Source: Sulfurimonas sp. (GTDB taxonomy: Bacteria > Campylobacterota > Campylobacteria > Campylobacterales > Sulfurimonadaceae). From it: a stretch of 64,000 nt of DNA. Numbering within the stretch: position 1 is the first letter of the stretch; the number at the start of each line of letters is the position of its first letter. The position numbers were made by a program, and so were the translations under genes. The stretch is from positions 20,263 to 84,262 of the forward strand of contig JBFHKA010000002.1 of the NCBI GenBank assembly GCA_041595535.1. The letters run 5' to 3'. A model generated the notes under the pieces. That model saw only the letters and a list, made by a program, of their open reading frames with translations, did no database searches and was not told where the DNA came from. Below are positions 36,689 to 58,497 of this stretch, piece after piece.

Positions 36689-36703
36689 TTTTTTCCTTTA
36701 TAG

Positions 36704-37183: not shown

Positions 37184-37398
37184 TACACAGATGCTCCCAT
37201 ACACACAAAACTATCGGCAGTCCATCGACGGTAGAGACAGTTATAACAAGAATCTTGTTCGGTAGATGTAACAAGCTCATCTTCATCATTATCAAGTTTA
37301 AACTGCATACATCTTCTTGTAGCTATTATTGCCCTTATATAATCTATTTTTCCATATTTAAATAAAGATGTACCACTTTTATTTTCAAACAATTTCAT
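37183..37398 (-). CDS. Small 4-Cys hypothetical protein (71 aa)
   Basis: C30, C51-x2-C54, C66; embedded in the operon with a 3-nt gap upstream and TAATG coupling downstream. Confidence 0.7.
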   Translation of the reverse strand: MKLFENKSGTSLFKYGKIDYIRAIIATRRCMQFKLDNDEDELVTSTEQDSCYNCLYRRWTADSFVCMGASV

Positions 37399-37401
37399 AT
37401 T

Positions 37402-38133: not shown

Positions 38134-38136
38134 TGT

Positions 38137-40107: not shown

Positions 40108-40116
40108 TTTTTTCCT

Positions 40117-41684: not shown

Positions 41685-41697
41685 AGTATTATTTCCT

Positions 41698-42345
41698 TTA
41701 TTTTGTAATGTAAACCCAAAATCCACTTTCATCATCAATAATAGTAAACTCACTTGGTCGAAGAGAATTAAAAATTATAGGTAAGGCTTCTCTTTCTGGT
41801 TTGATTCTATCTTTAAATGATTTTCTCCACTCTGGATTATTCTCTCTCATAGTTTGAACAATTTTTTCACGTAACTCTGCATTACCAAACCCTCCACCGA
41901 TGTATGCTTTACCACCGACTTTTAATACTCTGAGTATCTCACGGTATGCTTGATGCCAATCATCCCAGAACGGGGAAGAACCACGACTAATAACTAAGTC
42001 GATGGTGTCATTTTCAATCTCTATGTTATGAATATCTCCTTGCACGAAACCACTACGATGATATATGTGATCTTCTTTTGCATACTCTCTTGCAAATTCA
42101 AGCATCTCATCAGATTGATCAAAAAATGTCATATGCAAATCTGTAATTTTTGCCAATGATCTTCCTAAGGCTCCAGTACCACATCCAGCATCAAGGCATC
42201 TTCCACTTGTAATTTTTGTTTTTTCTATGATTTGTTCTGCTATCACAGGATAAATAGGAGCAAAAATCTCACGAACAATTTTGTCAAACCCTTGTGGGTT
42301 TGATCCGCCTCTATAGTGTTTTTTTATTTCCATATCTCTACTCAT
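41698..42345 (-). CDS. Class I SAM-dependent methyltransferase
   Basis: IFAPIYPVIAEQI, CLDAGCGTG, FDQSDEML, GDIHNI, DLVISRGS, RVLKVGG; start at 42345 gives proper RBS spacing. Confidence 0.9.
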   Translation of the reverse strand: MSRDMEIKKHYRGGSNPQGFDKIVREIFAPIYPVIAEQIIEKTKITSGRCLDAGCGTGALGRSLAKITDLHMTFFDQSDEMLEFAREYAKEDHIYHRSGFVQGDIHNIEIENDTIDLVISRGSSPFWDDWHQAYREILRVLKVGGKAYIGGGFGNAELREKIVQTMRENNPEWRKSFKDRIKPEREALPIIFNSLRPSEFTIIDDESGFWVYITK

Positions 42346-42359
42346 TGTTATCATCTCCT

Positions 42360-43403
42360 TTATAAGTTTACGTTAACACTCTCTAGTATCTCATCAAGAT
42401 TTTCTTGTGTTAAATCTACATTTAAAAAAAGTTTATAGAAACTTTTTGTCTCTTTTTGAATATCAATCTTGTACACTTCTGGGTAAAGGTTGTGCATGAC
42501 CCACTTTAGTCCTAAAATACGCATAAATGAAGGGGGTCTATCAAACCAATTAAATGGAGCTTTTGGAATTAAAAAAACTTTTTTATTTTTTACTGCTTTT
42601 ATTTCTTTCCATAATTTCATATCATAGATTTTGTCGTAAAACATCTTCTCTTGAACAAATATAACATCTGGATTGTATTGGAGTATAGTCTCCATAGATA
42701 ACTTTTCAAAACCTTTATGGCTTGAAGTATGGCATCTATGAATATCTACATCACCTGCTAATTTAAGAAGCTCGACATGAATGGAATCATCACACTCTGT
42801 ACTTAGTCCATCTGTTCCCTCAGCATAATACACAGTAGGCCTCTTCTCTTGTGGTACTTTTGCAACGGCATTTTTTACTTCATCAAAAGTATTTTTTGTA
42901 TACTCAGAGAGTCTATCACCACGCTCTTGTTTATTTAAAGCAACTCCTAAGAATTTAAAAATACCAACATAATCTAGAATGGATTCATCACAAGCATATA
43001 CAAATGGCGTACTGAGTATGTGTAATCTCTCTTGCTCTTTTTGTGTAAACTCATTGATGTGTGACCACATAAGAATTAAATCAGGGCGTTTTGAAAGCAA
43101 AACCTCAAGGTTTGCTGATTGTCCAGCTCCAAAAACTCTTCCTATAACAGGGAGTGTCTGCATTCTTTTGTCCAAAAAAGGATAATACTTACTGTCAATG
43201 TTAAATATCCACCCAACAAGAACAGAAGGATCCATGGCATAAAGAGCATAAGAACCATACGGTGAGGGAGCATAAACTTTTTTTGGTTGTTCTGGCACAA
43301 CTACCTTGCGTCCTAACATATCTACAATTTCTCTGGCTTGGAGAGAAGCTAAGAATAAAGAGCTAAGTAACAAGGTAAAAATAAATTTTTGAAGCTGTTT
43401 CAT
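42360..43403 (-). CDS. ABC transporter periplasmic binding protein (FhuD/BtuF-like class III)
   Basis: IVDMLGRKVVVP, NLEVLLSKRPDLI, ETILQYNPDVI, AVKNKKVF, FDRPPS. Confidence 0.92.
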   Translation of the reverse strand: MKQLQKFIFTLLLSSLFLASLQAREIVDMLGRKVVVPEQPKKVYAPSPYGSYALYAMDPSVLVGWIFNIDSKYYPFLDKRMQTLPVIGRVFGAGQSANLEVLLSKRPDLILMWSHINEFTQKEQERLHILSTPFVYACDESILDYVGIFKFLGVALNKQERGDRLSEYTKNTFDEVKNAVAKVPQEKRPTVYYAEGTDGLSTECDDSIHVELLKLAGDVDIHRCHTSSHKGFEKLSMETILQYNPDVIFVQEKMFYDKIYDMKLWKEIKAVKNKKVFLIPKAPFNWFDRPPSFMRILGLKWVMHNLYPEVYKIDIQKETKSFYKLFLNVDLTQENLDEILESVNVNL

Positions 43404-43412
43404 ACTATTTTC

Positions 43413-45467
43413 CTAAAAATTCATACTAATTTCGACACCAAGTGTTCTTCCACGGTCGTAGTAGTATCCAGTTGTATATCTTGTCGCATATTTATCATTT
43501 GTTAAGTTTCTTCCATAAATTTTCCCAGTAATGATGTTGCTTTTCCATTTAAAATCTTTTGCTGCATTTGCATCAATTCTTGTATAATTTCCAAGGGTAA
43601 CACCCGATGATGTTCCCATGGCACTTGAAGAACTAGAGTAAGCATCAACTCTTTTTGCAGAGGCATTAAAACGGTAATCTTCCCAAGTGTGACTTATGAG
43701 TGCGGAGTAGCTATTTTCAGGTGTGGATACACCTACACTATCAGAAGATGTAGTACTATTAGATGTCTCATTAAGAAGCATACGTGTCCATGAAAACTTA
43801 TAAGTTGTGCTTCTTTTAATAGTTCCATTGATACTTAACTCAACACCTTGTCTATGCGAATTTTGTTCTGTATAGTAGTAGTACTCATTTCCTTGGTCAT
43901 CTGTATATGTTTTATCATCAATGGCAGTTTTTTCATTCTCTATATCAACATCAAAGTAAGTTATCATAGGCACAAAAACTTTGTCAAAGTCTGCTTTTAA
44001 ACCTACTTCCCAACGATTTTGCTTTTCAGCATGAAGTGTTTCATTGTTTTCTGTCATCAGGTCAAAATCACCTGATACTCCTTCATCTCCATAGTAATAA
44101 CGTGCACTTAAACTATATGTATTTGTCATATTCCATAGTGCACCAACTGCAATAACATTAGCGGGAGACAAATCTATATTATTGTTTGCATTTGGTTTTG
44201 ATAATGCCTCATTTTTTGCTTTTGTTGAATCTTTTATATGTTTATAATCAAGTCTATACCCTGCATCAAGAACAAGCGATTCATCAAAAAGAGATTGCTC
44301 TAATGAAATTGCATACCCCATCACAGAAGTGTCATATTTGTTATATCCTTTTGAGAGATTTGGTCCAAAACCTTTACTGTGTGTCATCTGTCCACCAAGG
44401 TTAATAAGTGTATTTCCAAAACGTGCTTTATGTCGTAAACTATATGTCTGTGTTGATTCTGTATACTCTTTTTGTGCATGAGAAGTGTTTGCAAAGTTAT
44501 CATTAATCTCTGTTTGTTCATACATTATTGAAGATGCTGAGAAGAGTGTAACTTGATTTTCACTCCAAATAATATTTCCATCCATAGAGAGTACAGTAGT
44601 TATAATAGGGTCATAAAACCACTTTGCATTATCAACAGTTCCGTCTGTTTTTACTCCCCTTTGCATCTCAAATCTACCTCTATCTTTATAAGCCATAGTA
44701 TTGATTGTTATAGGACCATAGTTCAAACCTGCGTTTATCATTCCAGCTTGGGCACTACTTCCATCAAACCAATCTTCTCTACTTGGTCGGTTATAACGTG
44801 AGACCATCCCTCCAACATATCCATTGAGAGAATTAGCACTTCCAAATGTTGCTCCCATATAGAGATCTTCTCCATCAGCTCCTGGTTGTGCATCTGCTTG
44901 CTCATAATAGGCTCTTAGCATCCCTCCAGTTTTTTTAGGATGTTTTGTTCTAATGATGATATAACCTATTGATGTTCCGCCACCACTATTAGATGCTCCA
45001 ATATCTATAGCAGGTGCTATCGTTATTGCTGTAGATGTACGAACAATCTGTATCTCCTCAATAGCTACAAGAGGAAGTGTTGTAAGAATACGATCGCTAG
45101 TTGAAGGTAAAATAGCTCCATCTAAAATATAAGTAATACTTCCTCCTCCTCGCATATTGATAAAATAAGGGTGTTTACGTCCTTGATATGTTACGTCCAT
45201 TCCTATTGCTTTATTCATCAAGTCAAAAAAGTCTTTTGCTTGGTATGCTTCTATCTCTTTTTCATCCATAACCTCAGTTCCAAACTGTGCACTCTTTTCT
45301 ATCTGATAAAGATTTGTAGGACTTGATAGTTCAAGATCTTCCCTTGGTGCGACTGTTGTTTCATTTACGTTAATCTCTTCTAAATTTTTTGTCTCCTCTG
45401 CTGACAAATTAGAAGCTACTGACACTATTAGCAAAAGTGCTAAATATCCTAAAACCTTTTTTTTCAT
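43413..45467 (-). CDS. TonB-dependent receptor
   Basis: Signal peptide, LEEINV box, plug NMRGGGSITYILDG, GRNLTNDKY, C-terminal EISMNF. Confidence 0.92.
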   Translation of the reverse strand: MKKKVLGYLALLLIVSVASNLSAEETKNLEEINVNETTVAPREDLELSSPTNLYQIEKSAQFGTEVMDEKEIEAYQAKDFFDLMNKAIGMDVTYQGRKHPYFINMRGGGSITYILDGAILPSTSDRILTTLPLVAIEEIQIVRTSTAITIAPAIDIGASNSGGGTSIGYIIIRTKHPKKTGGMLRAYYEQADAQPGADGEDLYMGATFGSANSLNGYVGGMVSRYNRPSREDWFDGSSAQAGMINAGLNYGPITINTMAYKDRGRFEMQRGVKTDGTVDNAKWFYDPIITTVLSMDGNIIWSENQVTLFSASSIMYEQTEINDNFANTSHAQKEYTESTQTYSLRHKARFGNTLINLGGQMTHSKGFGPNLSKGYNKYDTSVMGYAISLEQSLFDESLVLDAGYRLDYKHIKDSTKAKNEALSKPNANNNIDLSPANVIAVGALWNMTNTYSLSARYYYGDEGVSGDFDLMTENNETLHAEKQNRWEVGLKADFDKVFVPMITYFDVDIENEKTAIDDKTYTDDQGNEYYYYTEQNSHRQGVELSINGTIKRSTTYKFSWTRMLLNETSNSTTSSDSVGVSTPENSYSALISHTWEDYRFNASAKRVDAYSSSSSAMGTSSGVTLGNYTRIDANAAKDFKWKSNIITGKIYGRNLTNDKYATRYTTGYYYDRGRTLGVEISMNF

Positions 45468-45485
45468 CTCTCTTCCTTGTATTTT

Positions 45486-45496
45486 TTATGACATAA
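45486..45496. promoter_or_regulatory. Palindromic operator candidate TTATG-A-CATAA
   Basis: Perfect 5-1-5 palindrome between a minus-strand TATAGT -10 (45513-45518) and the RBS of the receptor gene; related sites at 52484-52494 and 52528-52546. Confidence 0.55.
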
Positions 45497-45546
45497 CGAT
45501 TACTTAATTAGTACTATACTCTTTCTAACACATTTGCTCACTCCCC

Positions 45547-46521
45547 TTATTGCTCTAAATAATTAAAGAAAATCTTCTCAAAGTTTTGTAACTCTTTCTT
45601 AGAAGATAGTGGCAACAACTCAGGGTAAAACGTATGAATCAGCCAACGTATTCCCATTAAACGCATAAAAGATGGTGGTCTTGTTATGTAATTAAATGGA
45701 ACGGATGGAACCAAATAAACTTGTTTACTCTTCACCGCACGTAACCCAGTAAACTTTGGATTTTCATAAATTCCATCATAAAAACTCTTCTCCATTACAA
45801 CAAGAACATCAGGATCACTTAAAACAATGTTTTCAAATGAAATTTTTTCCATTCCATAGTTTGAACTCATTTTACAATCCAGTGCATTTTTAGCACCGCT
45901 ATATGTAAAAGGTTCTAAATGAAAAGAGCCACTACATTCACTACTCATTCCATCTACACCCTCCGCAAAATAGTAACGTACTGGTTGCATCTTAGAGAGT
46001 TTACTTTGTAGAGAATCTATAAGTGTAAGTGTCTCTTGCGTGTATGCTATAAGCTCTTTAGCTCGCGTTGTATCACCTGTAAGTTTTGCATAGAGTTCAA
46101 ACTGTGTAATCAAATCACTTATTGAATCATTTCTGATTAATAACACAGGAATGTTTAACATCTCAAATTTTTTGAGCACTTTTTCATACCCATTCATGCG
46201 TCCCCACATCAAGATAACATCTGGTTTTGAAGCTGCTAAAAGTTCAAAGTTTGGAGTTTTGCCTTGTCCAAAAAAACCACCAGCAACAGGCTTCTCGTAT
46301 GCAACTCCAGCATAGGGCTTTTGTTCGGGAGTAAATGGTGTATTTAGAGCACTGAGTAGTGCTGGATTAAATGCCAATACACTCATACTTATAGGGGGTG
46401 AAGCCGCATAAATTTTTGTAACTTTATCTGGAACTTCAACACTTCTTCCATAATCATCTACAATGACTTTTGCCTGCGTTTGCGTTAAAAAGAAAAATAA
46501 TACCAACAGAAATATTTTCAT
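45547..46521 (-). CDS. ABC transporter periplasmic binding protein (class III)
   Basis: IVDDYGRSVEVP, PNFELLAASKPDVI, SFENIVLSDPDVL, AVKSKQVY, ITRPPS. Confidence 0.92.
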   Translation of the reverse strand: MKIFLLVLFFFLTQTQAKVIVDDYGRSVEVPDKVTKIYAASPPISMSVLAFNPALLSALNTPFTPEQKPYAGVAYEKPVAGGFFGQGKTPNFELLAASKPDVILMWGRMNGYEKVLKKFEMLNIPVLLIRNDSISDLITQFELYAKLTGDTTRAKELIAYTQETLTLIDSLQSKLSKMQPVRYYFAEGVDGMSSECSGSFHLEPFTYSGAKNALDCKMSSNYGMEKISFENIVLSDPDVLVVMEKSFYDGIYENPKFTGLRAVKSKQVYLVPSVPFNYITRPPSFMRLMGIRWLIHTFYPELLPLSSKKELQNFEKIFFNYLEQ

Positions 46522-47306
46522 TAGACTCTACCTTTTAGTACTGGAATACACCACTGCTTAGAGTTGTGCTCAATAATATTTGCATTGATGCCATAAATAC
46601 CTTGCATCATATCTGACGTTATAACTTCATCACTTGTTCCATTTGCGATGATTGTTCCCTCATCCATTACCACAACACGACTAGAAACTAAAATAGCATG
46701 GTCTGGATAATGCGTAGTCTTTAAAAAGGTGTAACCCTTTGCACTCAATTCATTAATCATCTCTAAAAGACGTATTTGATTGCCATAATCAAGACCTGAG
46801 ACTGGCTCATCCATAATAAAAGTATTTGTCTCCTGTGTGAGTGCACGTGCAAGTAAAACCATCTGCTTTTGTCCACCACTAAGTTCTCCAAAAGCTCTCT
46901 TTGCAAGCGACTCTATACCAATAGTCTTAAGTGCTTCATAAGCAAGTTCAAAATCCTTTTTGGAAGGAGAAGAAAAGAGACCAAGCTTAAATACACGCCC
47001 CATTACAACCATATCTAAAACACTATAGTTAAAAGGGACATTATGATATTGTGGAATATATGCAATATGTGCAGCTATCTCTTTTTGGGAGTAATCTTTT
47101 AAGTTTTTATCTCCAAGTTTTATCTCCCCTTCTCCTTTTAAAAGACCTAATATAATACGAATCATTGTACTTTTTCCACAGCCATTTGCACCGAGTAAAC
47201 TTACTACTTCACCCTTGTGCAAATCAAAATCAACTCCACGGAGTACATCTCTTTTTGGGTAAGAAAAATGAAGATTTTTTACCGAGATAATTGGTTTTAA
47301 TTCCAT
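46521..47306 (-). CDS. ABC transporter ATP-binding protein (FepC/FecE-like)
   Basis: True start ATG47306 (MELKPII); GANGCGKS, LSGGQKQ, IMDEP, TTHYPDH. Confidence 0.93.
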   Translation of the reverse strand: MELKPIISVKNLHFSYPKRDVLRGVDFDLHKGEVVSLLGANGCGKSTMIRIILGLLKGEGEIKLGDKNLKDYSQKEIAAHIAYIPQYHNVPFNYSVLDMVVMGRVFKLGLFSSPSKKDFELAYEALKTIGIESLAKRAFGELSGGQKQMVLLARALTQETNTFIMDEPVSGLDYGNQIRLLEMINELSAKGYTFLKTTHYPDHAILVSSRVVVMDEGTIIANGTSDEVITSDMMQGIYGINANIIEHNSKQWCIPVLKGRV

Positions 47307-48325
47307 GCTGCCCTCGCATTTTTGAGTACAATTATAAAAATTGGAATCCCTATTATAGATGTGAGTATTCCTATTGGTATCTCGACACTCAAAGCAAGTC
47401 TTGACACAGAATCTGCTAGAAGTAAAAAAAGTGCACCTAAAATTGCAGAAAGCGGTATCAAAGTACGGTGTGAGGGTCCTATTGCCATACGTATAATGTG
47501 CGGTATAATAAGACCAATCCAACCAATAATACCTGCCATAACAACAGAGAGTGAACTTGCAATAGTCGCTAGAAGAATTGCTATAATTCTTACTGCTTTT
47601 ACATTGATACCAAGTGCTTTTGCCTCTTCATCTCCAAGACTTAAAATATCAAAATATTTGCTCATTAAAATCATAGTAGCAATACTTAGAATCATAGGTA
47701 TACTAATAAGTAAAACGCCATTTAACTCAGCCATAGAGAGACTTCCCATCAACCAGTAAACAATTGCAGGAAGTGTGCTGTATGGATCTGCCACATATTT
47801 TATAATAGATAAAAAAGATGTAAAAAGCGAACCACTAATAACGCCACCAAGGACAAGCATCACACTCGAACGAGAGTTTGTAACCATAGAACCGATAGCA
47901 ACAGAGAGTGCAACTGCAATAAAACCAAAACTAAAAGCTAAGATTTGTACTACAAACCACTGCTCACTTATAAGCATTCCAAGTGCAGCTCCAAAAGAAG
48001 CCCCAGCCAAAACACCTAAAATACCCGGAGATACAAGTGGATTTACAAACATTGCTTGAAATACAGCTCCAGAAGTAGCCAAAGAAGCTCCAATTAATAT
48101 CGCCAACAAAACTCTAGGAAGACGAATCTCTAAGATGATATTGTCTAAGAGATCAAACTGAGATACATCTCCAGCTGTACTCCCTAAAATCTTATACTCT
48201 ATATAATTCATAAATGTACTAAAGTCTATGGGGTATTGCCCCCATAAAAGCGATAGAGTTGCAAAAATGAGTAAGATGAGAAAGGAAATACCTATCCATC
48301 TGCTACTACTACTTATATATTGCAT
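47297..48325 (-). CDS. FecCD/BtuC family ABC permease
   Basis: IRLPRVLLA, QAMFVNPLVSPGILGVLAGA, LSLGDEEAKALG, IGWIGLIIPHI, EIPIGILTS. Confidence 0.96.
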   Translation of the reverse strand: MQYISSSSRWIGISFLILLIFATLSLLWGQYPIDFSTFMNYIEYKILGSTAGDVSQFDLLDNIILEIRLPRVLLAILIGASLATSGAVFQAMFVNPLVSPGILGVLAGASFGAALGMLISEQWFVVQILAFSFGFIAVALSVAIGSMVTNSRSSVMLVLGGVISGSLFTSFLSIIKYVADPYSTLPAIVYWLMGSLSMAELNGVLLISIPMILSIATMILMSKYFDILSLGDEEAKALGINVKAVRIIAILLATIASSLSVVMAGIIGWIGLIIPHIIRMAIGPSHRTLIPLSAILGALFLLLADSVSRLALSVEIPIGILTSIIGIPIFIIVLKNARAAWN

Positions 48326-48333
48326 CTTTTACC

Positions 48334-50568
48334 TTAGTACTTTAAATTTAGACTTGCATATACACCAAATGGGGCACCTGTTTGGTACGTACTTGAAGTT
48401 CCATTTGCTGCGAGTGCATTATCTGCTGAGATAATAGTTGCTATGTATTTTTCGTTTGTTAAGTTTGTAGCTGTCACCCTAAAGAGTGAATCTTTTGAAC
48501 CAAAAAACGTTTTTAATTTATACGAGACGTCTAAATCTACTAAAGTATATGCATCTATTTTCTGTGTATTTGCAACATCCCCATATCTACTTGAGCTATA
48601 TCTAGTACTCGGCGTAAATGTCCATCTATCTACATAGTATGAGAGTGCCCCTTTTGCCATAAACTCTGGTGCATCAGGAAGCTGATTTCCTTTTATGGAT
48701 GTAGAGCTTGTTGGTGAAGACTTAAAGTCTTGTGTAAAACTATACTTGTTGTAAGAGAGTCCTAAAAGAAATTCTAAACTTTCAGTTATAGCTCCATTTG
48801 CTGCAAACTCTGCTCCATATCCTAAAGCTTCTCCAACATTCGCTGGATAATTCACACCATACGTTGGGTCATAAATATTTGCTTGTTTATTATTTACAAA
48901 TGATACAAAGAAACTTGGATTGAGTGTAATCGCACCTACATCTGTTTTAAATCCTAAATCAATATTATCGGATGTTTCAAGCTCTAATTCATCCCATAAA
49001 GTTTGAAGCTTAACACCTTTAGCTACAAAGGCTGCTCTGTTTGAAGCATACGTTGGAAAGAGATTTACATCAAATCCATACGTACGAGAGTAATCTAAGT
49101 AGATAGAAGAACTTGTATCTAAATCATACGCTAAGTACAAAGAAGGTAAAAAAGTATTAAAAGTTCTTGCGTCTACACTTGCCCAGCTGTCTAGTGTTGA
49201 AGTTGCTATTGCAACATCATGATCTTGACTTGTTGCAGCAGTTGTACCTATGTAGCTTTTAATAGATCCAATAGTAAAGGTTTGGTACTGTAATCCTGCA
49301 GCATAGTGAAAACTGCTCATATCACCACTAAGTTCCACAAAAGGAGCCTGCAATACATGATAATCTGTATCTGCTAAAATTCCATATCCTGCGTATTGTA
49401 AATTTCCACTTGCATTTACTTTGTATTTTTTTTGATCATTTGGAGGTCCAGGAGGGAGTTGTTTATGGTACCAGTACCCGATTTTACTTTTTAACTCTTG
49501 TGAAAATGTATGTTCATACGCTGCCACACCACCATATAAATCATGTTCCATATGCCAATTTATGACAACATTTTTTGCAGTATTAGAGAACCAATAATCC
49601 CCTTCATCTTTTTTATAGTAAGGCTTTAACGTGACTGTATCGTTTGAAGTAGGTTTAAAGGCTATGTCAGCCATAAACGCTGTAGTGTCAAAATTTTGTT
49701 TGTTCCAATCATAGTAGTTTGTGTCATTTGCACTTGTAGGTTTTGTTGATGCATAATCTTTATCAAAATATCTTCCAAGGTCTGTAGCTTCTGCATAACT
49801 CAAACTTGCATAGTTATGGTGCTTGTCTTTATTTCTTACTGCATAGATGTCTGCTTTAAAACTATTGTTAGGTTCATAAGAGAGTCCAACCATTCCATTT
49901 GCTCTTTTAAGATCTCCCTCGCCTTTTGTTTTATCACTCTGAATGTATGAGAGAGAACCAAAAGCACTAAAATCACTAACTTTTCCACTATCAACACGTA
50001 CAAATGTTTTTCTAAATGCATCACTACCAACAGACTGAGAGATATTTATGCCAAGTTTTTTCTTTGGTTTTAAAACATTCATATCGATTTTTCCAATTAA
50101 ACTTGAAAAACCTAAGTTTTTATCGACACCTATGTACCCTTTATGTAAATCAATAGAAGCGACATTTTCCATATCAAGCATCTGTTTTCCACCACCAGGA
50201 TTACTTGATATTGGCATACCATTTATCATGTACACTCCACCAGGACCAGACTGACTTTTTCCACGAATACGTATTGGGTCATGGTACGAAGGTTCATTAG
50301 AACCAGCCTGATCGACTGGAGTAAAATTCACCGATGGTGAAAACTGAATAACCGTATACGGGTTCATATTTGCCTGTGTACTTAGTGTAGCTATACTCTT
50401 TTGTGTATAACTTTGGCTATTTTGTTTTGCGGATGTGTTGCTATCACTTACTAGCATCTGTCCATCATCTTGCATAGTTGAATTGACTACGATTTTTTCT
50501 ACACTCAGTGGTGTAGCCATCAGTGCAGTTGCTGCGACTAAAGATAACATTGTAAACGTAACTCTCAT
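48334..50568 (-). CDS. TonB-dependent receptor
   Basis: VEKIVV box; plug IRIRG...YMINGMPIS; GNQLPDAP; ATNLTNEKY; C-terminal SLNLKY. Confidence 0.93.
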   Translation of the reverse strand: MRVTFTMLSLVAATALMATPLSVEKIVVNSTMQDDGQMLVSDSNTSAKQNSQSYTQKSIATLSTQANMNPYTVIQFSPSVNFTPVDQAGSNEPSYHDPIRIRGKSQSGPGGVYMINGMPISSNPGGGKQMLDMENVASIDLHKGYIGVDKNLGFSSLIGKIDMNVLKPKKKLGINISQSVGSDAFRKTFVRVDSGKVSDFSAFGSLSYIQSDKTKGEGDLKRANGMVGLSYEPNNSFKADIYAVRNKDKHHNYASLSYAEATDLGRYFDKDYASTKPTSANDTNYYDWNKQNFDTTAFMADIAFKPTSNDTVTLKPYYKKDEGDYWFSNTAKNVVINWHMEHDLYGGVAAYEHTFSQELKSKIGYWYHKQLPPGPPNDQKKYKVNASGNLQYAGYGILADTDYHVLQAPFVELSGDMSSFHYAAGLQYQTFTIGSIKSYIGTTAATSQDHDVAIATSTLDSWASVDARTFNTFLPSLYLAYDLDTSSSIYLDYSRTYGFDVNLFPTYASNRAAFVAKGVKLQTLWDELELETSDNIDLGFKTDVGAITLNPSFFVSFVNNKQANIYDPTYGVNYPANVGEALGYGAEFAANGAITESLEFLLGLSYNKYSFTQDFKSSPTSSTSIKGNQLPDAPEFMAKGALSYYVDRWTFTPSTRYSSSRYGDVANTQKIDAYTLVDLDVSYKLKTFFGSKDSLFRVTATNLTNEKYIATIISADNALAANGTSSTYQTGAPFGVYASLNLKY

Positions 50569-51587
50569 TACTCATCTCCTAAAATTGTTTTAACTTGCTT
50601 GTCTGTTATTTTTACATTAAAAAAGAGTGCATAAAACTCTTTTATCTGTTTGTTCAGGTCTATTTTGTACTCATTTGGATGAAAGATATTTGCTAACCAT
50701 TGAATCCCAATAATTCTCATAAAAGATGGTGGTCTATCAATCCAGTTAAAGGGTGCATTGGGTACAAGATATACTTTTTTGTTTTTTACTGCACGTAGAT
50801 GGGCAAAAAGGTCATCATAAAGAATCTGATTGTATGTAAAACTATTTTGAGCAATGATGACATCTGGGTCATACGTCAAAAGCGTTTCAAAGTTAATCTT
50901 CTCTAAACCTAGAAGCTGACTCTGTTGGCACTTATGTACGTTCTCGCCACCTGCAAAATTGAGTGCTTCGATGTGAAAAGATTGGTCACACTCTGTAGAT
51001 AAACCATCAACGCCTTCTGCGTAGTAGTAACGTACAGGCTTTGTTTTTGCGAGAGATATTTGTATCTCTTCTATGATATTTTTAGCATAAGAAGACAAAA
51101 GTAAACCTCTTCCATGCTCATTCATAGCATTTGCCGCAACACTAATTGCTTTTGGCATATCTTCTATTTTTCTAAAAGGAATGGAAAGTGTTGGCAAGTG
51201 TGTTTTTTGTATAGATTTATTTACAGTAGCCATCATCATGTCATCTTCCCAAACAAAAATTAAGTCTGGTTTTTTTGCCATAAGGATTTCAAGATTTATA
51301 TTTTTTCCTCCCCCATGAAAAGAGCCAATAACGGGAAGTGAAAGAAATCGTTTATCCAAAAACTCTGGGGTTGCAAAATTATTACTATTTTTTGCACTAA
51401 AGTTTAAACCAATAAGTTTATCTGGATTGATTGCATATATAAGATACGTCATTGGTGGGGAAGAACCAAAGACAGTCTCAACTTTATCAGGCACAGTGAC
51501 CTCATCTGCATAAAAATTCTGGATGCTTCTTGCATCAAGATTGCTTAGGAGGACGAATATGACAAGTAAATGAAGTAAAAAATTCAT
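50568..51587 (-). CDS. ABC transporter periplasmic binding protein (class III)
   Basis: INLEILMAKKPDLI, NFETLLTYDPDVI, AVKNKKVY, IDRPPS. Confidence 0.92.
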   Translation of the reverse strand: MNFLLHLLVIFVLLSNLDARSIQNFYADEVTVPDKVETVFGSSPPMTYLIYAINPDKLIGLNFSAKNSNNFATPEFLDKRFLSLPVIGSFHGGGKNINLEILMAKKPDLIFVWEDDMMMATVNKSIQKTHLPTLSIPFRKIEDMPKAISVAANAMNEHGRGLLLSSYAKNIIEEIQISLAKTKPVRYYYAEGVDGLSTECDQSFHIEALNFAGGENVHKCQQSQLLGLEKINFETLLTYDPDVIIAQNSFTYNQILYDDLFAHLRAVKNKKVYLVPNAPFNWIDRPPSFMRIIGIQWLANIFHPNEYKIDLNKQIKEFYALFFNVKITDKQVKTILGDE

Positions 51588-51598
51588 TTTAAATTTCC

Positions 51599-52366
51599 TT
51601 AGGATTGTTGTAGTGAAAAAGAGATGGGAATCTTCAAATCAACTTTTTTACTCAATTGTGGGTACTCTCCATCTAGCAATGAAACTGTCTGAAGAGCTCT
51701 TTTATCTAGTGCAGAACTACCGCTACTCTCAAGTATACATACGCTCTCTACATGTCCATCTGCAGAGAGCGAGAATGAAATAAGTACAACACCCTCTAAT
51801 TTTAGTTTTCTAGCAATTGCTGGATAACGTAGTGAGTTTTGTATTAAGGTTCTTATGCGTGCTAATTCTTCATTACTTACCTCTGTGGTCCGTGTATGCG
51901 TCTGAGGTAAGTTAGAATCAGCCAAAGGAGAATTAACGCTAGGAGCTTCTGGTTGTGCAATTTCTTGTTGCGTAACGGGCTCTGCTTTTTGTATAGGAGG
52001 CGTAAACGCCTCAGAAGGAACAACAGGTTCTGGTTGCACTTTCTCAGGAGTCTTTTCTTTTGGTACTTCTTTTACTACTTTTTTTTGAGGTTTAACTACT
52101 TTTTTTGTTTTCTTTACTTTTTTTACAGGTTTTGGAGTAGGTTTGGTAGGCTCTTTGAGCGCTTGCATTGTAGGTGCATAACTCGCTAAAGAGACAACTA
52201 TAGTTTTACTCTCTTGTGGCATATGAACAAACTCATTACTTGCATAATGAATGAGCGTTGCAAAAAGAGCAGCGTGAATAAAAAGAGAGGCAAAAAATGC
52301 CTTTGTTTTCAAAAAAGAGTCACTGTGTATCTTTTTAGATACAACGATACTACCTAAAGAATTCAT
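51599..52366 (-). CDS. tonB: Energy transducer TonB
   Basis: TM SLFIHAAL (SxxxH), Lys/Pro-rich linker, YPAIARKLKLEGVVLISF, SSGSSALDKRAL; start ATG52366 6 nt after GAGGGG. Confidence 0.92.
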   Translation of the reverse strand: MNSLGSIVVSKKIHSDSFLKTKAFFASLFIHAALFATLIHYASNEFVHMPQESKTIVVSLASYAPTMQALKEPTKPTPKPVKKVKKTKKVVKPQKKVVKEVPKEKTPEKVQPEPVVPSEAFTPPIQKAEPVTQQEIAQPEAPSVNSPLADSNLPQTHTRTTEVSNEELARIRTLIQNSLRYPAIARKLKLEGVVLISFSLSADGHVESVCILESSGSSALDKRALQTVSLLDGEYPQLSKKVDLKIPISFSLQQS

Positions 52367-52402
52367 CTTCACCCCTCAAAATTTCTACTTTTAAGCAAAA
52401 GT

Positions 52403-52600
52403 TTCATTATATCTTTTAAAACATAATGAATTTCACTTTGATGTGCAATATCTATTCTTAGCCATATAGATAAATATAGACATTTATGTCATACATTTAT
52501 GCTACTTACACTTACAAATTTGTAGCATTATGTTTTAAAAACATAACGAATAGTAGGGAAATTATACTTAAATCTCTATTTAAAGAGACGATTACTTAAT
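52403..52600. promoter_or_regulatory. Promoter region of the tonB operon with several palindromes
   Basis: Minus-strand TATAAT at 52561-52566 and 52406-52411; TTCATTAT-N12-ATAATGAA (52403-52430); TTATG-T-CATAC (52484-52494); ATGCTAC-N16-GTAGCAT (52499-52528); TTATGTTTT-A-AAAACATAA (52528-52546). Confidence 0.6.
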
Positions 52601-55091
52601 GAATACTAAAATCTTTTACATAGACAAAACCAACGCCCTGCCCTGTTTCATGTGTGTCTACATCAAAGCGAACAGATTTGCTTATACTATATTGAAGTAC
52701 TACGCTTGAGGTTGTGTCACTCTTATAAACTACTCGCATATTTTTATTGAAACGAGCACCTACTTCATAGCCTAGAGTTCCATCTTGATTGTTCAATATA
52801 TTGAGTGTGTCAATATTAACACCTGAAGTATCGCTAAACATTTGACTGAGTCCAGTTCCTAGTAAGAGTGCATTTACTGACGTTTTATTACTACTCCCAT
52901 CAAAAACAGAGTTGGCTCTCTCTCCAAAGAGTATGTAAGACATGATGTCATTTTGACTCATTGCTGGATTAGAAGAGAAGATGACGATTGGCTCGGTAAG
53001 TGTATGTGTTATAAATATCTCTATATCTATATAATCAAGTGTATAATAGTGCAGATGTATGTTGAGCTTTGGATTTAGCTCCTCTGCTCCATCAAAAATA
53101 ACATAACTTTTATCGACTTTAAACTCTTTACCAGCGCTGCTGAGTGTTCCTTCTAAGATAGTAACATCTCCAAAAATTCGCAAGCTCTCTCCCGGTTTTT
53201 CTACAACTCTTAAATCTGGGACAAACTCTATATCTGCCTCTTTTGTTTTGTAGTGGATTGGTTTTTTAGCTTTTATTTTTATATCTACAAAGCGTTTAGA
53301 ATTCTCTTTTTTCTTTTTATCTTGAAGTATAATGATGTCTTTATCGCTGATTTTATAATCGTTACGTGCGCTATACGATGTCACTCCATTTAAGAGCAGT
53401 ATCTCTCCTTGTATGTTTTGTGTAGCGTTTGCATCTACAAGAAGATGTAAATCAGCTTTTACGCTTATATTTATATCTTCCGCTACATAATCAAACTTCT
53501 CACTTTGCAGAGTCACATCTACACTTTTGTCTGCCGTTTTCACCTTACCTTTTACGAGTAGGTTGTCATATATCCAAAACTCATCGAAGATTATGGAGTT
53601 GTTTTCATCAAGTGAGAGTAAAGATTCCCTCTCTGAGTAGATTTTTTGCTCCATATATTCTGCACTATATCTTTTTACTTTGATTTTTTTATCTGTGTAC
53701 ACGACACTCATAGAAATATCTTTTATTACTTCTGTATTTTGCGAATCTGTTTTTATAGATACCCAAGGAACTGAAATACTATTTTCAATCTCCTCTGCAC
53801 TCTCAAAAAGAAGCGTTGTGTTTATATCTACACGCTCATATTTAAACTCTTTTAGCAGTTTTTTGCCTGGGCTTATGTGTGTTTGTAGAGCGAGCTTTTT
53901 ATCATCTATTTTATAAGCTGTTTTGAGTGTTACATGCGTATTATCTACAAGGAGTTTTCCCTCCACATTTAAGGCATTAGAGGTATCAAGTGTTGCGCTT
54001 GCATTGAGAGAGAGATTTTGTTCTTGTATCTCTTTTGGAAGCTCTTTTAAAAATGAAAGATTCATATCTTTACCTCTCAGATTGAGCGCGTATTTTTTAT
54101 AATCTTTTGTTGTTACGTGCAAGTTTATTTTGCCCGCATCTACATCTGTGACGAGACTTTTAGTATCTCCTGTAGTTGTTACGTGCATAGTATGAAATGG
54201 CAAAGGTATCGGAGTTTGTGCAAGTGTTGCATTAAGCTCTGATGTAAAGTTTTCATCATTTTTATAGTGAAGTTTTTGTGCAATCTTTACTTTATAATCT
54301 GGATATATAAAGTCGCACGTAACATAACTATTTAACTCTTTTTGCGCAATAGCATACTCCAGCTCTAGGGCTATATCTTTAAATTTCGCATTGGATGCTA
54401 CACGCAAATTTTCTACATCTATTTTTGCGAGAACTTTTTGCTCTGTAGCATCTAGGTAGAGTTTAAAGTTTAAAGGAGAATCAGCTAAAAATCCAAGATA
54501 TTTCTCTTGTATACTTTGGCTTGGTTTGAGGCTTACCTCGCCCATTATTTTGTTAGAGAGGACTTTTGCATTGAGTGTTACGTGCGCATAAGAAGTGTTT
54601 AAATCTAAGAGCAGTTTTTCAATATCTACTTGCTTGTCATAGTGAAGATTTTTGGCTTTAAAATCAAAAGAGACTTCCTCTTTATCAAAAATGATTTTTG
54701 TGTTTTTAAGCTCTATATTTTTTATTATAAAAGCGATGGCGGATGAGGAGCTACTATTTGTATCTGAGCTAGGTAATTTGTTGAGATTTAGCTCTAGTGC
54801 ATCTACTGTAATCTTAGAAATTTTTGGTGTTGTTTGCAACAGATAGAGAAAGTTATAATTGACACGTAAGGATTTTAGTTTTACAAATTCTCCATACTTT
54901 ACATCTTCTATAGTTATGTGATTGAATATACTTCCCTCTACGTGACTATACTCTACTCCAAACTCTTTGAGATATTTTTCTGCAAAATAGGGAACAAAGT
55001 AACTGTTTGTGAGTATCAAAAAAGCAAGAACTACAAGAGCAATAGCACCTACTACAGTTGAGTGAAAAAATAGGTAGAGTCTCTTTATCAA
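52596..55091 (-). CDS. tamB: Translocation and assembly module TamB-like protein
   Basis: N-terminal anchor, beta-rich body, C-terminal FSSNPAMSQNDIMSYILFG; ATGA overlap with tamA. Confidence 0.8.
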   Translation of the reverse strand: MIKRLYLFFHSTVVGAIALVVLAFLILTNSYFVPYFAEKYLKEFGVEYSHVEGSIFNHITIEDVKYGEFVKLKSLRVNYNFLYLLQTTPKISKITVDALELNLNKLPSSDTNSSSSSAIAFIIKNIELKNTKIIFDKEEVSFDFKAKNLHYDKQVDIEKLLLDLNTSYAHVTLNAKVLSNKIMGEVSLKPSQSIQEKYLGFLADSPLNFKLYLDATEQKVLAKIDVENLRVASNAKFKDIALELEYAIAQKELNSYVTCDFIYPDYKVKIAQKLHYKNDENFTSELNATLAQTPIPLPFHTMHVTTTGDTKSLVTDVDAGKINLHVTTKDYKKYALNLRGKDMNLSFLKELPKEIQEQNLSLNASATLDTSNALNVEGKLLVDNTHVTLKTAYKIDDKKLALQTHISPGKKLLKEFKYERVDINTTLLFESAEEIENSISVPWVSIKTDSQNTEVIKDISMSVVYTDKKIKVKRYSAEYMEQKIYSERESLLSLDENNSIIFDEFWIYDNLLVKGKVKTADKSVDVTLQSEKFDYVAEDINISVKADLHLLVDANATQNIQGEILLLNGVTSYSARNDYKISDKDIIILQDKKKKENSKRFVDIKIKAKKPIHYKTKEADIEFVPDLRVVEKPGESLRIFGDVTILEGTLSSAGKEFKVDKSYVIFDGAEELNPKLNIHLHYYTLDYIDIEIFITHTLTEPIVIFSSNPAMSQNDIMSYILFGERANSVFDGSSNKTSVNALLLGTGLSQMFSDTSGVNIDTLNILNNQDGTLGYEVGARFNKNMRVVYKSDTTSSVVLQYSISKSVRFDVDTHETGQGVGFVYVKDFSIH

Positions 55092-56785
55092 AACAGCTCT
55101 CCTATATGAAAGTTGAGTGCATACTGTTTAGTAGGATTTGCCAAATCAAATCCAATATCTAAAGATATAGGTCCAATGGGCGTAGTATAACGCAGACCAA
55201 AACCTACACTGTAGTAGAAATTGTCTGTATCTGGAAGATAGCTCTCTCCTATGGCAGTGTTGTCACTAAAGAGGACACCTCTTACTTTGGAATATATAGG
55301 AAAACGATACTCCAGAGTCACTTCAAGTAAGGCATCAAAACCAGTAGGATTTCCCTTCGTGTCTTTTGGACCTAAGTCTCTGTATGTATAGGCACGATTG
55401 CTATAGGTTCCTCCTGCAAAGAAACGATACGAGGGTGGAACTTTTCCATCATAAAGGTTTAAACTTCCCAAACTTGCCTTTGTTGCAAGAAAGTGTGTTC
55501 CTATAAGAGGCAAGATGTACCCACCTGAGAGTGTAAACTTTGAGTACGAGGCATCCGAGATGTCACTTAAGAGAGAACCCATAATATCTGCATTTATAAA
55601 GTATCCATTTGTTGGGTTTAGAATATCGTTACGTGTGTCATATCCCCAAGCAAGTTTAGGCGAGAGAATAAAGAGATTTCCCTCTGGAAATAGAGTCACA
55701 TCTTCACTCTCATACGTGTAAGTATTATCAAAAATAAGACTCTCTTTAAAGCTATGAGGTATAGCTCTTTGCGCTAAAAAAAGAGTTCCTGAGGTACTAA
55801 GCTCTTTAAAACCGACATAGTTCTCATTTTTTAGTGCTACTTCAGCGCCAAAAGTTTCTCTACCTTTAAGTGGCATAGAGTAGTTTACTTTTAGAATTTG
55901 ATAAATCTCTGTGAGCTTTGTACTCATACCTAGAGTTTTTAGATTGCCAAAGAAGTTTCTATCTTCAACCCCAAGAGAACCTATAATCCCTTGATCAGTA
56001 CTATAACCAAGACCTGTCTCAAAACGTATTGGGTTTTCATTTTCACTTATAGTTACATTAACATCTATCTTTGCACTACCATTTATCTCGGTGTTTATAA
56101 GTGCAGAGGAGATGCCAGGGTGTTCATAGATGTATTTGTAACTCTTACTTATGTTTTGAGAGGAATAAGGCTCATTCTCTTTTATATATAGAAAAGACCT
56201 TATGATATCTGCATCAATGGTTTTTGATGGAGTTATATCTATAGTTCCAAAGTAACAGACTTCATTTGGAACTATTTTATAGCGTAGCGTTGCACGATTT
56301 AGCTCTATATCAACATAGGCTTTTGCGTCAACTTTTACGTTACAGTAACTATGTTGTACATAAAAAAACTTGATGTCTTGTTTGCTTTGTGTAAATAGCT
56401 CAGCATCAAAAAGTGCACCTTTTTCAAAGGGCAACGCATCTTCTAAAGGCAACAAAGAATCTATCTCTATCGCAGTGATGACAACAGGAGCATTTTCTTT
56501 TATGTGAAGGGTAAATTTTTCCTCTTCATACGATGCGTTGACCTCTGCATGGTAAAAACCTTTGTATCTGTAGTAGTTTGTAATTGTTTGTTCTACAAGA
56601 GGAAGAATTTTTTTATTTACTGCAGGAGCTTTTTTGTTGAGTTCGTAAAAAGATGCTTCTGAAAGATTTAGAGCGCTATAAAGCTCTTTTGTACTAAGGG
56701 CATCATTCCCTTCAAATACAAGAGGAATATCTTCTGCCTGCAATAACAATGATAAAAAAGCAAACATTACTAAGACTATTTTCAT
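55088..56785 (-). CDS. tamA: Omp85 family outer membrane protein TamA
   Basis: POTRA repeats (YYRYKGFY), RFFAGGTYSNRAY, GFGLRYTTPIGPISLDIG, C-terminal IGELF. Confidence 0.88.
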   Translation of the reverse strand: MKIVLVMFAFLSLLLQAEDIPLVFEGNDALSTKELYSALNLSEASFYELNKKAPAVNKKILPLVEQTITNYYRYKGFYHAEVNASYEEEKFTLHIKENAPVVITAIEIDSLLPLEDALPFEKGALFDAELFTQSKQDIKFFYVQHSYCNVKVDAKAYVDIELNRATLRYKIVPNEVCYFGTIDITPSKTIDADIIRSFLYIKENEPYSSQNISKSYKYIYEHPGISSALINTEINGSAKIDVNVTISENENPIRFETGLGYSTDQGIIGSLGVEDRNFFGNLKTLGMSTKLTEIYQILKVNYSMPLKGRETFGAEVALKNENYVGFKELSTSGTLFLAQRAIPHSFKESLIFDNTYTYESEDVTLFPEGNLFILSPKLAWGYDTRNDILNPTNGYFINADIMGSLLSDISDASYSKFTLSGGYILPLIGTHFLATKASLGSLNLYDGKVPPSYRFFAGGTYSNRAYTYRDLGPKDTKGNPTGFDALLEVTLEYRFPIYSKVRGVLFSDNTAIGESYLPDTDNFYYSVGFGLRYTTPIGPISLDIGFDLANPTKQYALNFHIGELF

Positions 56786-56840: not shown

Positions 56841-56895
56841 ATGTTTGAAAGATTTTTAGTGAAGTCTTCAGTGGTGGACGAGGATGGGGTTCGAA
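56841..56895 (-). repeat. Degenerate direct repeat of the tRNA-Ser 3' end and its downstream flank (att-like)
   Basis: TCTTCAGTGGTGGACGAGGA(T)GGGGTTCGAA at 56865-56895 matches 57657-57686 with one inserted base; ATGTTTGAAAG lies 24 nt upstream of both copies (56841, 57633). Confidence 0.9.
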
Positions 56896-56926
56896 AAACC
56901 CCACGCTTGAATAGTATGTATTAGAG

Positions 56927-57484
56927 TTAGTTATATACTACACTAACATACCCTGTTTCAGGAGTGATAGTTAAAATAGCTGACTCCGCACCACTTGAGA
57001 CAGTAATTGTACAATCAGCACTTAGTAATTCTCCTGCTGTTCCTGCTGCAGTATATGGAGAAGTTGTAGCCGCTAAACTTCCAATCATAGGTCGTCCTAA
57101 ATGATCAAAGCTAATGATAGTTTGTCCATTACATCCACCTCCAAAAGCTAATGAAACATTTCCTTTAAGCTCAACATTATTTATATTTGTTCTATCTTGA
57201 GGATCTTTTGCAAAAGTAGTTCCATTGTCACTTTGAATAGTATAAAACCGATTATTAACACCACTAAATACTATCTGCCATCTATTTATAAACCATGTAT
57301 TATCTGCTGCATTATACTTATCGTCAATCATTGCTAAGTGTTGTGTGTATCTAATCTGTGAGGCTAAATCAACTGTAGCTTCTTGAACTGGATTTGTTCT
57401 AGTACTTGGGACTATGATGGCAAGAAGAACCCCTATAACTACAATAACAAATATAAGTTCTAACATAGTAAAGGCTTTTTTCAT
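56927..57484 (-). CDS. Type IV pilin / pseudopilin (prepilin N-terminal cleavage and methylation domain)
   Basis: MKKA|FTMLELIFVIVVIGVLLAII class III signal (F+1, E+5); AGGAAG RBS; two Cys in the C-terminal region. The longer ORF-track start runs through the tRNA. Confidence 0.92.
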   Translation of the reverse strand: MKKAFTMLELIFVIVVIGVLLAIIVPSTRTNPVQEATVDLASQIRYTQHLAMIDDKYNAADNTWFINRWQIVFSGVNNRFYTIQSDNGTTFAKDPQDRTNINNVELKGNVSLAFGGGCNGQTIISFDHLGRPMIGSLAATTSPYTAAGTAGELLSADCTITVSSGAESAILTITPETGYVSVVYN

Positions 57485-57547
57485 TTTTACTCTTCCTTTT
57501 CTATAATCTTTGACTGCATTAAAAAACAGCCTAATTTCATTGGTTTG

Positions 57548-57556
57548 ATTATAGCA
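57548..57556 (-). promoter_or_regulatory. Extended -10 for the pilin gene
   Basis: TGCTATAAT about 64 nt upstream of the ATG. Confidence 0.7.
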
Positions 57557-57663
57557 CAGTTTAATTTTAATATACGACTTTTTGAATTTGAAAAATAACT
57601 TACAAGGTAAAAGAATTTTTGATTTTAAAAATATGTTTGAAAGTACATAAAGTAGCTCTTCAG

Positions 57664-57753
57664 TGGTGGACGAGGAGGGGTTCGAACCCTCGGTACAGTT
57701 ACCCATACGCATCCTTAGCAGGGATGTGGTTTCAGCCGCTCACCCACTCGTCC
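57664..57753 (-). tRNA. tRNA-Ser(GCT)
   Basis: GGACGAG/CTCGTCC acceptor stem, CATCC-CT GCT AA-GGATG anticodon arm, long variable arm, GAGGG-TTCGAAC-CCCTC T-arm, encoded CCA; 90 nt. Confidence 0.97.
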
Positions 57754-57813: not shown

Positions 57814-58497
57814 CTAGATTTGCTCTAGTATTTTTCTTACAATTTCTGCTGGATTTTCTGCTTTATAGATAGGACGACCAACTACTATAAAGTCAACCAA
57901 TGCACTTTTTGCGTACTTCACATCAGCAACACGTTGCTGATCTCCAGCATCTTCACCAAATGGACGTATACCAGGTGTAAGTGTCATAAAATCTTTTGAC
58001 GTACTATTTTTGATTGATTCACTCTCAAATGCTGAACAAACTACACCGTCAAGTCCACTCTCCATAGCATCTTTTGCGAACTGGTCAGCCTTATTTGCAA
58101 TTCCTTTTTCATATACTGCCGAAAACTCATCCTCATTAAACGAAGTAAGAGCCGTTACAGCCAAAACAATAGGTCGTTTCTCGTATGAACTAAGTCTATT
58201 CATAACTTCACTCATAGCACGCTTACCAGCGCTTGCATGAACATTAAACATATCTACACCAAGCCCCATAATCGACTCAGCAGCATCAGCCATAGTGTTT
58301 GGAATGTCATAGAGTTTGAGGTCTAAAAATATTTTAAAATCAGGATTTATTTTTTTAATTGCTTTTAAAAAATTTTTTCCATCACGTATATACGTTCGAA
58401 GTCCAACTTTGAGCCAGACATTATACTCTTTTATATTTTCAATGAGTGCGAGGTTCTCTTCTTTTGTGGGTAAATCTAGGGCTACACATAATTCCAT
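57814..58497 (-). CDS. pyrF: Orotidine-5'-phosphate decarboxylase
   Basis: [50 protein letters not shown]. Confidence 0.98.

Follow-up and report, generated by a model that had tools for sequence, protein, structure and literature searches.

The window analysed here, a 64,000-nucleotide stretch of DNA from Sulfurimonas sp., contains a 792-bp islet that holds a single type IV pilin gene and lies between the tRNA-Ser(GCT) gene and a displaced copy of the 3' end of that tRNA. This unit is probably an integrase-less remnant of site-specific integration at the 3' end of tRNA-Ser(GCT), resembling a cis-mobilisable element (CIME). A survey of 194 genomes or species of relatives (in the following, L numbers denote loci or contigs and G numbers denote genomes) shows this tRNA gene to be the bacterial attachment site (attB) of filamentous phages that encode a tyrosine integrase, as well as of other islands, in Sulfurimonas. 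The islet is a small leftover of ordinary mobile-DNA traffic and not a new kind of system.

At a distance of 792 bp from the tRNA-Ser(GCT) gene, which is the sole tRNA gene of the window (ARAGORN; Rfam RF00005, 55 bits), a second copy of its final 23 nt and of the 7-nt trailer was found. On the plus strand, the sequence TCTTCAG-TGGTGGACGAGGA(T)GGGGTTCGAA at 56865-56895 equals that at 57657-57686 save for a single 1-nt indel, giving a block of 30/31 nt. An exact match of 11/11 nt, ATGTTTGAAAG, was found at 56841-56851 and 57633-57643 (plus strand), in the same 792-bp register as the block and separated from it by about 13 divergent bases. An earlier note on this DNA, which reported the tRNA 3' end and its flank as repeated 792 bp away, was therefore correct. 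The 23-nt core gave no match in 100 dinucleotide shuffles, so its repetition is not due to chance. In the genome of 2.62 Mb, the 65-nt distal copy was found at two places only, namely itself and the copy at the tRNA (E = 8e-8). The total repeated length is about 55 nt; apart from these repeats at either end, the 792 bp are unique. The CT(T)GAAGA trailer is also present behind the tRNA in many congeners.

The sole credible open reading frame (ORF) between the two copies encodes a protein of 185 aa (P0001) with the start MKKAFTMLELIFVIVVIG and a prepilin N-methylation motif. Neither the list of reading frames nor a search for remnants, which returned noise only, revealed an integrase or any other phage gene remnant inside the islet. 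This bears out the description of the interval as one type IV pilin gene without an integrase. The promoter that had been proposed there stood in part, as an extended -10 element, TGTGCTATAAT, can be read at 57558-57548 but was not among the sites listed by a consensus promoter scan.

In the relatives, pyrF and tRNA-Ser(GCT) were linked at each of the 19 congeneric loci whose flanks were usable, and also in several other genera. The DNA behind the tRNA was variable, often with tyrosine integrases. Two complete genomes carry prophages at this tRNA, bounded by direct repeats of the tRNA 3' end, with a length of 9.7 kb in G017 and 9.9 kb in G008. In both intervals a 293-aa tyrosine integrase (PF00589, phrog_1) is encoded directly after the tRNA, together with a rolling-circle Rep (PF05840/PF23343, phrog_91), a secretin of the M13 pIV type (phrog_1012), a 582-aa pIII-like protein and small coat-like proteins. 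By this predicted gene content, both elements are integrated filamentous phages. The IMG/VR contig L088, which is 10,272 bp long and terminally redundant (circular), represents a relative in the free state, with an integrase of 77% identity. In the orientation of the tRNA, its phage attachment site (attP) reads ...GGGGTAAGAATTT / TTCAAATCCCTCCCTATCCACCA / CAAAGCCCTATTTTATGGACTTTCAAAGCC... and is followed by the integrase gene, the order being P'-core-P. Sulfurimonas inoviruses with attachment (att) sites in tRNAs have been published (PMC11531552).

The flanks of the two copies in the window were aligned with these phage arms. The 50-60 nt after the tRNA copy resemble the integrase-side phage arm, with z values of 8.4 for G008, 7.2 for the attP of L088 and 4.6 for G017, and show no similarity to the attR flanks of the prophages (z = -0.6 and 1.0). 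The distal core is preceded by a P'-like arm, and the sequence GCGTGGGGTTTT/TTCGAA is the form that the P' junction takes at every prophage right end and in attP. The arm is also homologous to the same 19 nt in the sister contig L099. The similarity of the distal flank to the P arms was weaker (z = 3-4.9). These alignments show that the tRNA copy is an attL, in which the tRNA 3' end is reconstituted and the P arm comes next. The distal copy is an attR-type junction, with the displaced tRNA 3' end between the P'-like arm and the tamA-side flank. The view that a tRNA 3' duplication marks site-specific integration is supported, the repeats being attachment-site scars. Folding gave a 9-bp hairpin composed of the P'-like arm and the distal core, T-arm-like and located 20 nt past the pilin stop codon; this hairpin may form the 3' end of the pilin transcript.

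The earlier note also named a tandem duplication as possible, as the similarity runs past the CCA into the flank. The tRNA 3' end and its native flank would then have been copied locally, in tandem or by replication slippage, with no mobile element involved. This explanation was rejected as very improbable. The duplication comprises no more than about 55 nt, the tRNA is flanked by phage P-arm DNA, and the P'-type left junction of the distal copy is common to prophage right ends and to L099. Moreover, the same architecture bounds real prophages in relatives.

The islet shares with the inoviruses of G017, G008 and L088 the attB, the core and the family of P/P' arms. Unlike them, it is devoid of Rep, morphogenesis or coat, pIV and integrase genes, and it is at most their scar. 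The possibility that it is itself an inovirus prophage was rejected, since Rep, morphogenesis/coat and integrase genes are absent from both the islet and the whole genome.

Same-contig duplicates of the core among the 194 genomes span 0.6 to 34 kb. What occupies the site varies among the relatives: some have filamentous prophages, others ParE toxin-antitoxin units or units without a gene, and there is also one type I restriction-modification island and one composite island of 34 kb. The islands other than phages measure 7-34 kb. In G055 (L103, G055:C1:1350500-1360500) a 7.3-kb integrase-less island, in which the type I restriction-modification system is complete (HsdM, HsdS and HsdR), lies between two identical tRNA-Ser cores. 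Two identical cores also enclose the 33.7-kb composite island of G053 (L125 and L126, G053:C1:1751500-1788500), which contains split and intact integrases, primase/helicase, a short-type pilin and a large defence cluster with helicase, methyltransferase, restriction-like and ATPase genes.

Much smaller units were found as well. In G016 (L060, G016:C1:846294-866293, positions 794-2900), three cores delimit units of 890 and 867 bp, whose cargo consists of a ParE/RHH toxin-antitoxin pair and a 134-aa unknown protein. A phage arm of 110-171 nt follows each core, and the last arm is followed by a C-terminal remnant of the integrase (...KFDRSIEIYV). The array ends at a mutS-like flank that is also present after attR in G017, the mutS-like gene being located directly after the tRNA-Ser elements in both genomes. 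In G065 a unit of 624 bp consists of an arm and P'-core with no credible gene (one ORF of 60 aa, spurious-looking). The differing content of the site among relatives supports the view that it is a hotspot. Neither a pilin nor tamA was found after the tRNA at any of the pyrF/tRNA-Ser loci examined, 19 of them congeneric and 5 from other genera, and the pilin is thus clearly far from being invariant and syntenic everywhere. The idea that strains swap pilin alleles at this site did not hold, given that this slot contains a pilin in no other genome and that the usual homes of the family lie elsewhere.

The closest public TamA (77% identical) is encoded by the groundwater contig L099, which is syntenic with the window for tamA, tamB, TonB and the next uptake genes. 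The junction ...GGGTAGGTTTTT/TTCGAACCTCTCCTCGTCCACCA/CTGAAGAC... was found some 140 nt in front of the tamA of L099, with the arrangement P'-core-CTGAAGAC as in the window. The last 52 nt before the tamA ATG are 92% identical between the two. To the left of the core the homology stops after about 19 nt, and L099 has a ParE/RHH pair in the place of the pilin. By this comparison, the distal copy is older than the species of the window, and the cargo differs in the sister taxon exactly at the att boundary. The module composed of ParE/RHH and P'-core is also present at the tRNA-Ser of G016, G023 and G065, with 70-73% DNA identity, and may act as an addiction module that keeps remnants at the att site. 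A scan of metagenomes for the junction upstream of tamA gave 0 matches.

According to the preferred reading, an element of this att family would have integrated at tRNA-Ser(GCT), possibly twice. Its backbone would then have been deleted, the pilin gene of the P'-proximal slot being retained with its own promoter. The pilin would presumably be processed by the resident prepilin peptidase and built into a type IV pilus or into type II secretion-like filaments. With no cognate integrase remaining in the genome, the islet would now be fixed, and its excision, or co-mobilisation by accretion, would take place only with a related phage integrase in trans. The phage integrase, Rep and the phage structural genes are all without a homolog in the genome; its three tyrosine recombinases are unrelated to the phage integrase and are located on other contigs. 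The decay intermediates in relatives, namely the G016 array with its integrase remnant and the gene-less G065 unit, were counted in favour of decay. The earlier proposal of a minimal integrated or decayed cassette is supported in the form of an integrase-less minimal or decayed element, as no integrase or phage genes were found.

In function and structure, the closest known kind is a CIME or a decayed genomic islet at a tRNA gene. CIMEs, for example those of Streptococcus thermophilus, have lost their integration and transfer genes and kept attL and attR (PMC6323972). The islet is likewise bounded by attL/attR-type copies of the tRNA 3' end, contains no integrase, transfer or replication genes, and has the att sites of an autonomous element family (G017, G008, L088) that uses the same site in relatives. 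Unlike CIMEs, its parents would be filamentous phages or other islands and not integrative and conjugative elements, its size is 0.8 kb with one gene, and its mobilisation by accretion is only hypothetical.

Three observations weigh against a remnant of this origin. First, the pilin family has no member on any sampled inovirus or viral contig; in the IMG/VR viral contigs no true homolog was found, only matches to the N-terminal motif. We therefore infer the arrival of the pilin as cargo of the element from its position only. Second, the islet has no recognisable phage pseudogene, unlike G016. Third, the distal flank is ambiguous, aligning with the tamA-side flank of L099 and yet sharing the exact 11-mer of the P arm, which L099 does not have. 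This 11-mer may go back to a second integration or to gene conversion, and the flank would fit one integration event as well as two.

The recurrence of compact units of similar size (792 bp in the window, 890 and 867 bp in G016) also fits a different explanation, in which the islet is a functional integrase-less mini-element, that is a satellite or cassette. It would exist as a circle of about 0.8 kb with P'-core-P and one gene, moved in trans by the inovirus integrase and maybe carried by the phage, whose filaments can vary in length to accommodate additional DNA; arrays like that of G016 would be built in this way. The position of the cargo, 20-40 nt from P', is in line with such a unit, as are the conservation of the ParE/RHH and P'-core module in four taxa and the precise swap of cargo at the att boundary between the window genome and L099. 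However, the G065 unit contains no gene, the integrase pseudogene fragment of G016 is a signature of deletion, and the toxin-antitoxin module, with its 70-73% identity between species, gives no sign of recent transfer. In addition, neither a free mini-circle nor a viral contig of this make-up was found, and the window genome is without a cognate integrase. For these reasons the explanation is considered unlikely. If it is true that a phage integrase mobilises such units, they would offer a simple model for the formation of satellites or cassettes around inoviruses, and also for the way in which phages drive an exchange of pilus components in a chemolithoautotroph of wide distribution.

A bolder and still less likely proposal is that the units of 0.6-0.9 kb, whether they contain the pilin, ParE (G016, G023, G065 and L099) or no gene, are integrase-less satellites of filamentous phages. 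Their integration, arraying and excision would be brought about in trans by the phage integrase, they would be exported alongside the phage in virions of tolerant length, and the pilin would remodel the pilus used as phage receptor. The positive evidence for it consists of the recurrence and the compactness of the units only. If true, minor-pilin cargo would lead to superinfection exclusion or to a shift in host range.

The DNA homology between the islet and other pilin loci is restricted to the coding sequence +/- ~16 nt. This would agree with a remnant flanked by att sites that was once empty, as in G065, and into which the pilin was inserted later, or in which it replaced another cargo, by integrase-independent recombination, either homologous or illegitimate; its position would then be incidental. 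The existence of gene-less units and the solitary occurrence of the short-type pilin in many unrelated chromosomal contexts point in the same direction. On the other hand, neither repeats nor insertion scars flank the pilin gene in the islet interior, the gene occupies the same P'-adjacent slot as the cargo of G016 and L099, and the large tRNA-Ser island of G053 likewise has a pilin (50% identical to P0001) among its cargo. Such a later arrival is accordingly regarded as improbable, and integration followed by decay remains the preferred reading.

The protein P0001 matched the prepilin N-terminal domain TIGR02532 with a score of 22.9 (cut-off 16.3), while Pfam N_methyl scored 18.4, under its cut-off of 21.2. 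The N-terminus, MKKA/FTMLELIFVIVVIG, displays a short leader, the cleavage/N-methylation motif, Glu at +5 and a hydrophobic N-terminal helix. All 29 invariant columns of the family are retained, among them F1 and E5 of the mature protein, two Cys (C118 and C158), FDxxGR and the C-terminal ETGY. The AlphaFold2 (AF2) model, with a predicted local distance difference test score (pLDDT) of 91.8, contains a helix at residues 7-53 and beta strands across 70-184. Its best and only meaningful match in the PDB was EpsH/GspH 2qv8 (probability 1.0, E = 1.6e-3, TM 0.62 for the target and 0.44 for the query). With the N-terminal motif, the beta-sheet head, the Cys pair and a prepilin peptidase in the genome (PF01478 gene on contig C27), P0001 has the features of the type IV pilin/pseudopilin superfamily. 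At the sequence level it does not fall within GspH, as TIGR01708 gave 30 bits versus a cut-off of 80 over residues 4-55 only, and Pfam GspH gave no match. The homologs are named GspH or FimT family in public sources. From the model, P0001 is best called a putative minor pilin of GspH/FimT-class-like type, its family membership being unproven.

An exact look-up of P0001 in public assemblies found nothing, and among 5.8 billion proteins no homolog came closer than 66% identity; an empty-site comparison with a conspecific strain was therefore out of reach. At the DNA level, the closest pilin homolog is 72% identical, a distance at which synonymous sites are saturated. Short-type homologs (E <= 1e-35) were detected in 24 of the 194 species, and three of them have in-frame stops, which suggests pseudogenisation of the accessory pilin in some species. 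In each of these three the stop is single, TAG or TGA (G181:C6:122888-123430, G104:C15:16703-17242 and G180:C1:318598-319137). The usual homes of the family are downstream of aclA and in a groESL-tRNA-Met/Asn-HisPhos-...-NaPi locus. Other contexts of the short type are beside ParAB/DnaB, near resolvase and toxin-antitoxin genes, and 53 bp from a tRNA-Leu; one homolog lies 4.4 kb from an orphan tRNA-like 3' end, amid defence-like genes. At the other solitary pilin loci, flanking repeats derived from tRNA were not found. The comparison of these loci shows the predicted pilin as an intact accessory paralog that is repeatedly island-associated or near tRNAs. The locus of another pilin, P0012, is polymorphic around the gene as well: the identical protein has differing neighbours in L055 and in L056/L057, with tRNA-Met, AAA_14/DUF4143 and FIST-GGDEF in one assembly only.

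The operon for pilus machinery of the mannose-sensitive haemagglutinin (MSHA) type, located at 5899-15327, encodes a PilO-like protein, a secretin, an MshM-like ATPase, T2SSE with an MshEN domain and T2SSF. It contains no pilin genes, in agreement with the earlier note. Five other prepilin genes are present in the genome, among them a long paralog on contig C15, behind aclA, and on C32 a gene of 157 aa with a more major-pilin-like appearance. The assignment of P0001 as the missing major pilin of this operon is disfavoured, given that its model looks rather like a GspH/EpsH-type minor pilin. The long paralog (219 aa, C15:136-795) is directly downstream of aclA (ATP-citrate lyase), a position kept genus-wide, and often lies no more than a few hundred bases from where the contig ends (its own C15; G002, G009, G011, G014, G020, G021), so a repeat would follow it, possibly an rRNA operon. 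In G017 the short and long paralogs are found in tandem at the aclA locus.

Arrays of CTX-phi, RS1 and TLC type arise by successive integrations of filamentous-phage type at one site, with regenerated junctions and defective units, and in this they are like the islet family. They use the host XerCD at dif, whereas the islet family relies on a phage tyrosine integrase at a tRNA, and the islet units, unlike theirs, are without replication or regulatory genes. Integron cassettes offer another likeness, being units of a promoter with a single gene or a toxin-antitoxin pair, arranged head to tail at one recombination site. The islet differs from them in its direct copies of the tRNA 3' end with phage arms, and in having neither intI nor attC hairpins. 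Its interpretation as an integron cassette was rejected on the grounds of these direct tRNA-derived repeats and of the location of the genome's three tyrosine recombinases on other contigs. In Pseudomonas aeruginosa, according to the account of Kus et al. (2004) cited in PMC11626772, group-specific pilins and accessory genes are found between pilA and a tRNA-Thr. The likeness to that region, as described there, is a pilin gene beside a tRNA gene in a variable interval; in the same account it is a major pilin, at a fixed locus by pilB and with allelic groups. The islet contains instead an accessory GspH-like paralog between att repeats, and no pilin alleles are present at the site in relatives.

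The islet provides a clean example of how the tRNA attachment site of filamentous phages gathers tiny integrase-less leftovers with one useful or addictive gene. As a family, the GspH/FimT-like minor pilins of Sulfurimonas behave like accessory cargo with a link to mobile elements. For annotation purposes, an odd tRNA-fragment repeat is explained, and caution is advised against taking the pilin for the missing major subunit of the MSHA-type operon. The coordinates of the islet and of its neighbours are collected in Table 1.

Table 1. Features of the islet at tRNA-Ser(GCT) and of the adjoining genes (positions in the window)
Feature	Coordinates	Strand	Basis or remark
tamA (Omp85/POTRA), chromosomal gene bordering the islet	55088-56785	minus	Pfam; adjoins the distal core in L099 too
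Flank from the distal core to the tamA start codon	56786-56864	minus	holds the 11-nt block CTTTCAAACAT (56841-56851), common to the P arm
Distal core copy, attR-type: displaced tRNA 3' end with 1-nt insertion and CTGAAGA trailer	56865-56895	minus	
P'-like left arm of the distal copy, GCGTGGGGTTTT before the core	56896-56913	minus	resembles the ...GGGTAAG-TTTT junction
Prepilin-type gene P0001, 185 aa, putative GspH/EpsH-like minor type IV pilin, accessory short-type paralog	56927-57484	minus	
Unique AT-rich leader with putative extended -10 promoter TGTGCTATAAT (57558-57548) and ribosome-binding site	57485-57606	minus	sequence reading
Phage-type P arm, integrase-side arm of attP, GCTACTTTATGTACTTTCAAACATATTTTTAAAATCAAAAATTC...	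57607-57656	minus	local alignment to phage arms
Trailer, 7 nt, CTGAAGA on the tRNA strand	57657-57663	minus	within the identity block of both copies
tRNA-Ser(GCT) gene	57664-57753	minus	3' 23 nt (57664-57686) are the tRNA part of the recombination core, attL side; ARAGORN, Rfam
pyrF, kept gene on the other side of the tRNA	57814-58497	minus	Pfam OMPdecase, E = 1e-60

On the distal side, tamA and tamB together span 52596-56785. In more distant TamA relatives (62-65% identical), tamA was found in other contexts. In the relative L100, the genes tamA-tamB-MscS-mutS are contiguous, in the native order. It was considered whether the 22 kb between tRNA-Ser and mutS form one island; this was rejected in view of the native tamAB-MscS-mutS order in L100 and the lack of an attR before mutS. 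Between tamB and the MscS-like gene, the window contains a 16-gene locus for TonB-dependent uptake (35855-52372). Since the flanking genes are contiguous in L100, this locus is an insertion relative to that order, and it is common to L099. The ParE/RHH module was located at 370-983 of L099, at 1113-1708 of L060, in L064 and at 2846-3347 of L102, always beside a P'-core junction. On the pyrF side, six congeners (L026, L029, L033, L034, L036 and L039) have a gene for a secreted protein of about 210 aa, with the motif ...KNR(V/I)xDY..., between pyrF and tRNA-Ser, a gene that the window does not have.

A second tRNA-like 3' end, TTCGAATC(T/C)CTGAGGGTCCACCA, occurs in many genomes in 2-3 copies per genome with a spacing of 1-20 kb, for instance at G012:C1:2540293/2560975/2564510 and at G041:C1:1980109/1990668/1991678 (L104). 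ARAGORN and Rfam gave no gene call at the examined copies. In G041 it bounds a 1.0-kb pair of nucleotidyltransferase/HEPN-like genes. Finally, contig C1 of the genome under study ends (about 149900-150159) with groES followed by tRNA-Met and two identical tRNA-Asn genes, and its contig C71 starts with a tRNA-Asn 3' end followed by the arm-like sequence CCCCTAAACATAGG. The two contig ends are probably another integration hotspot, which would have broken the assembly.

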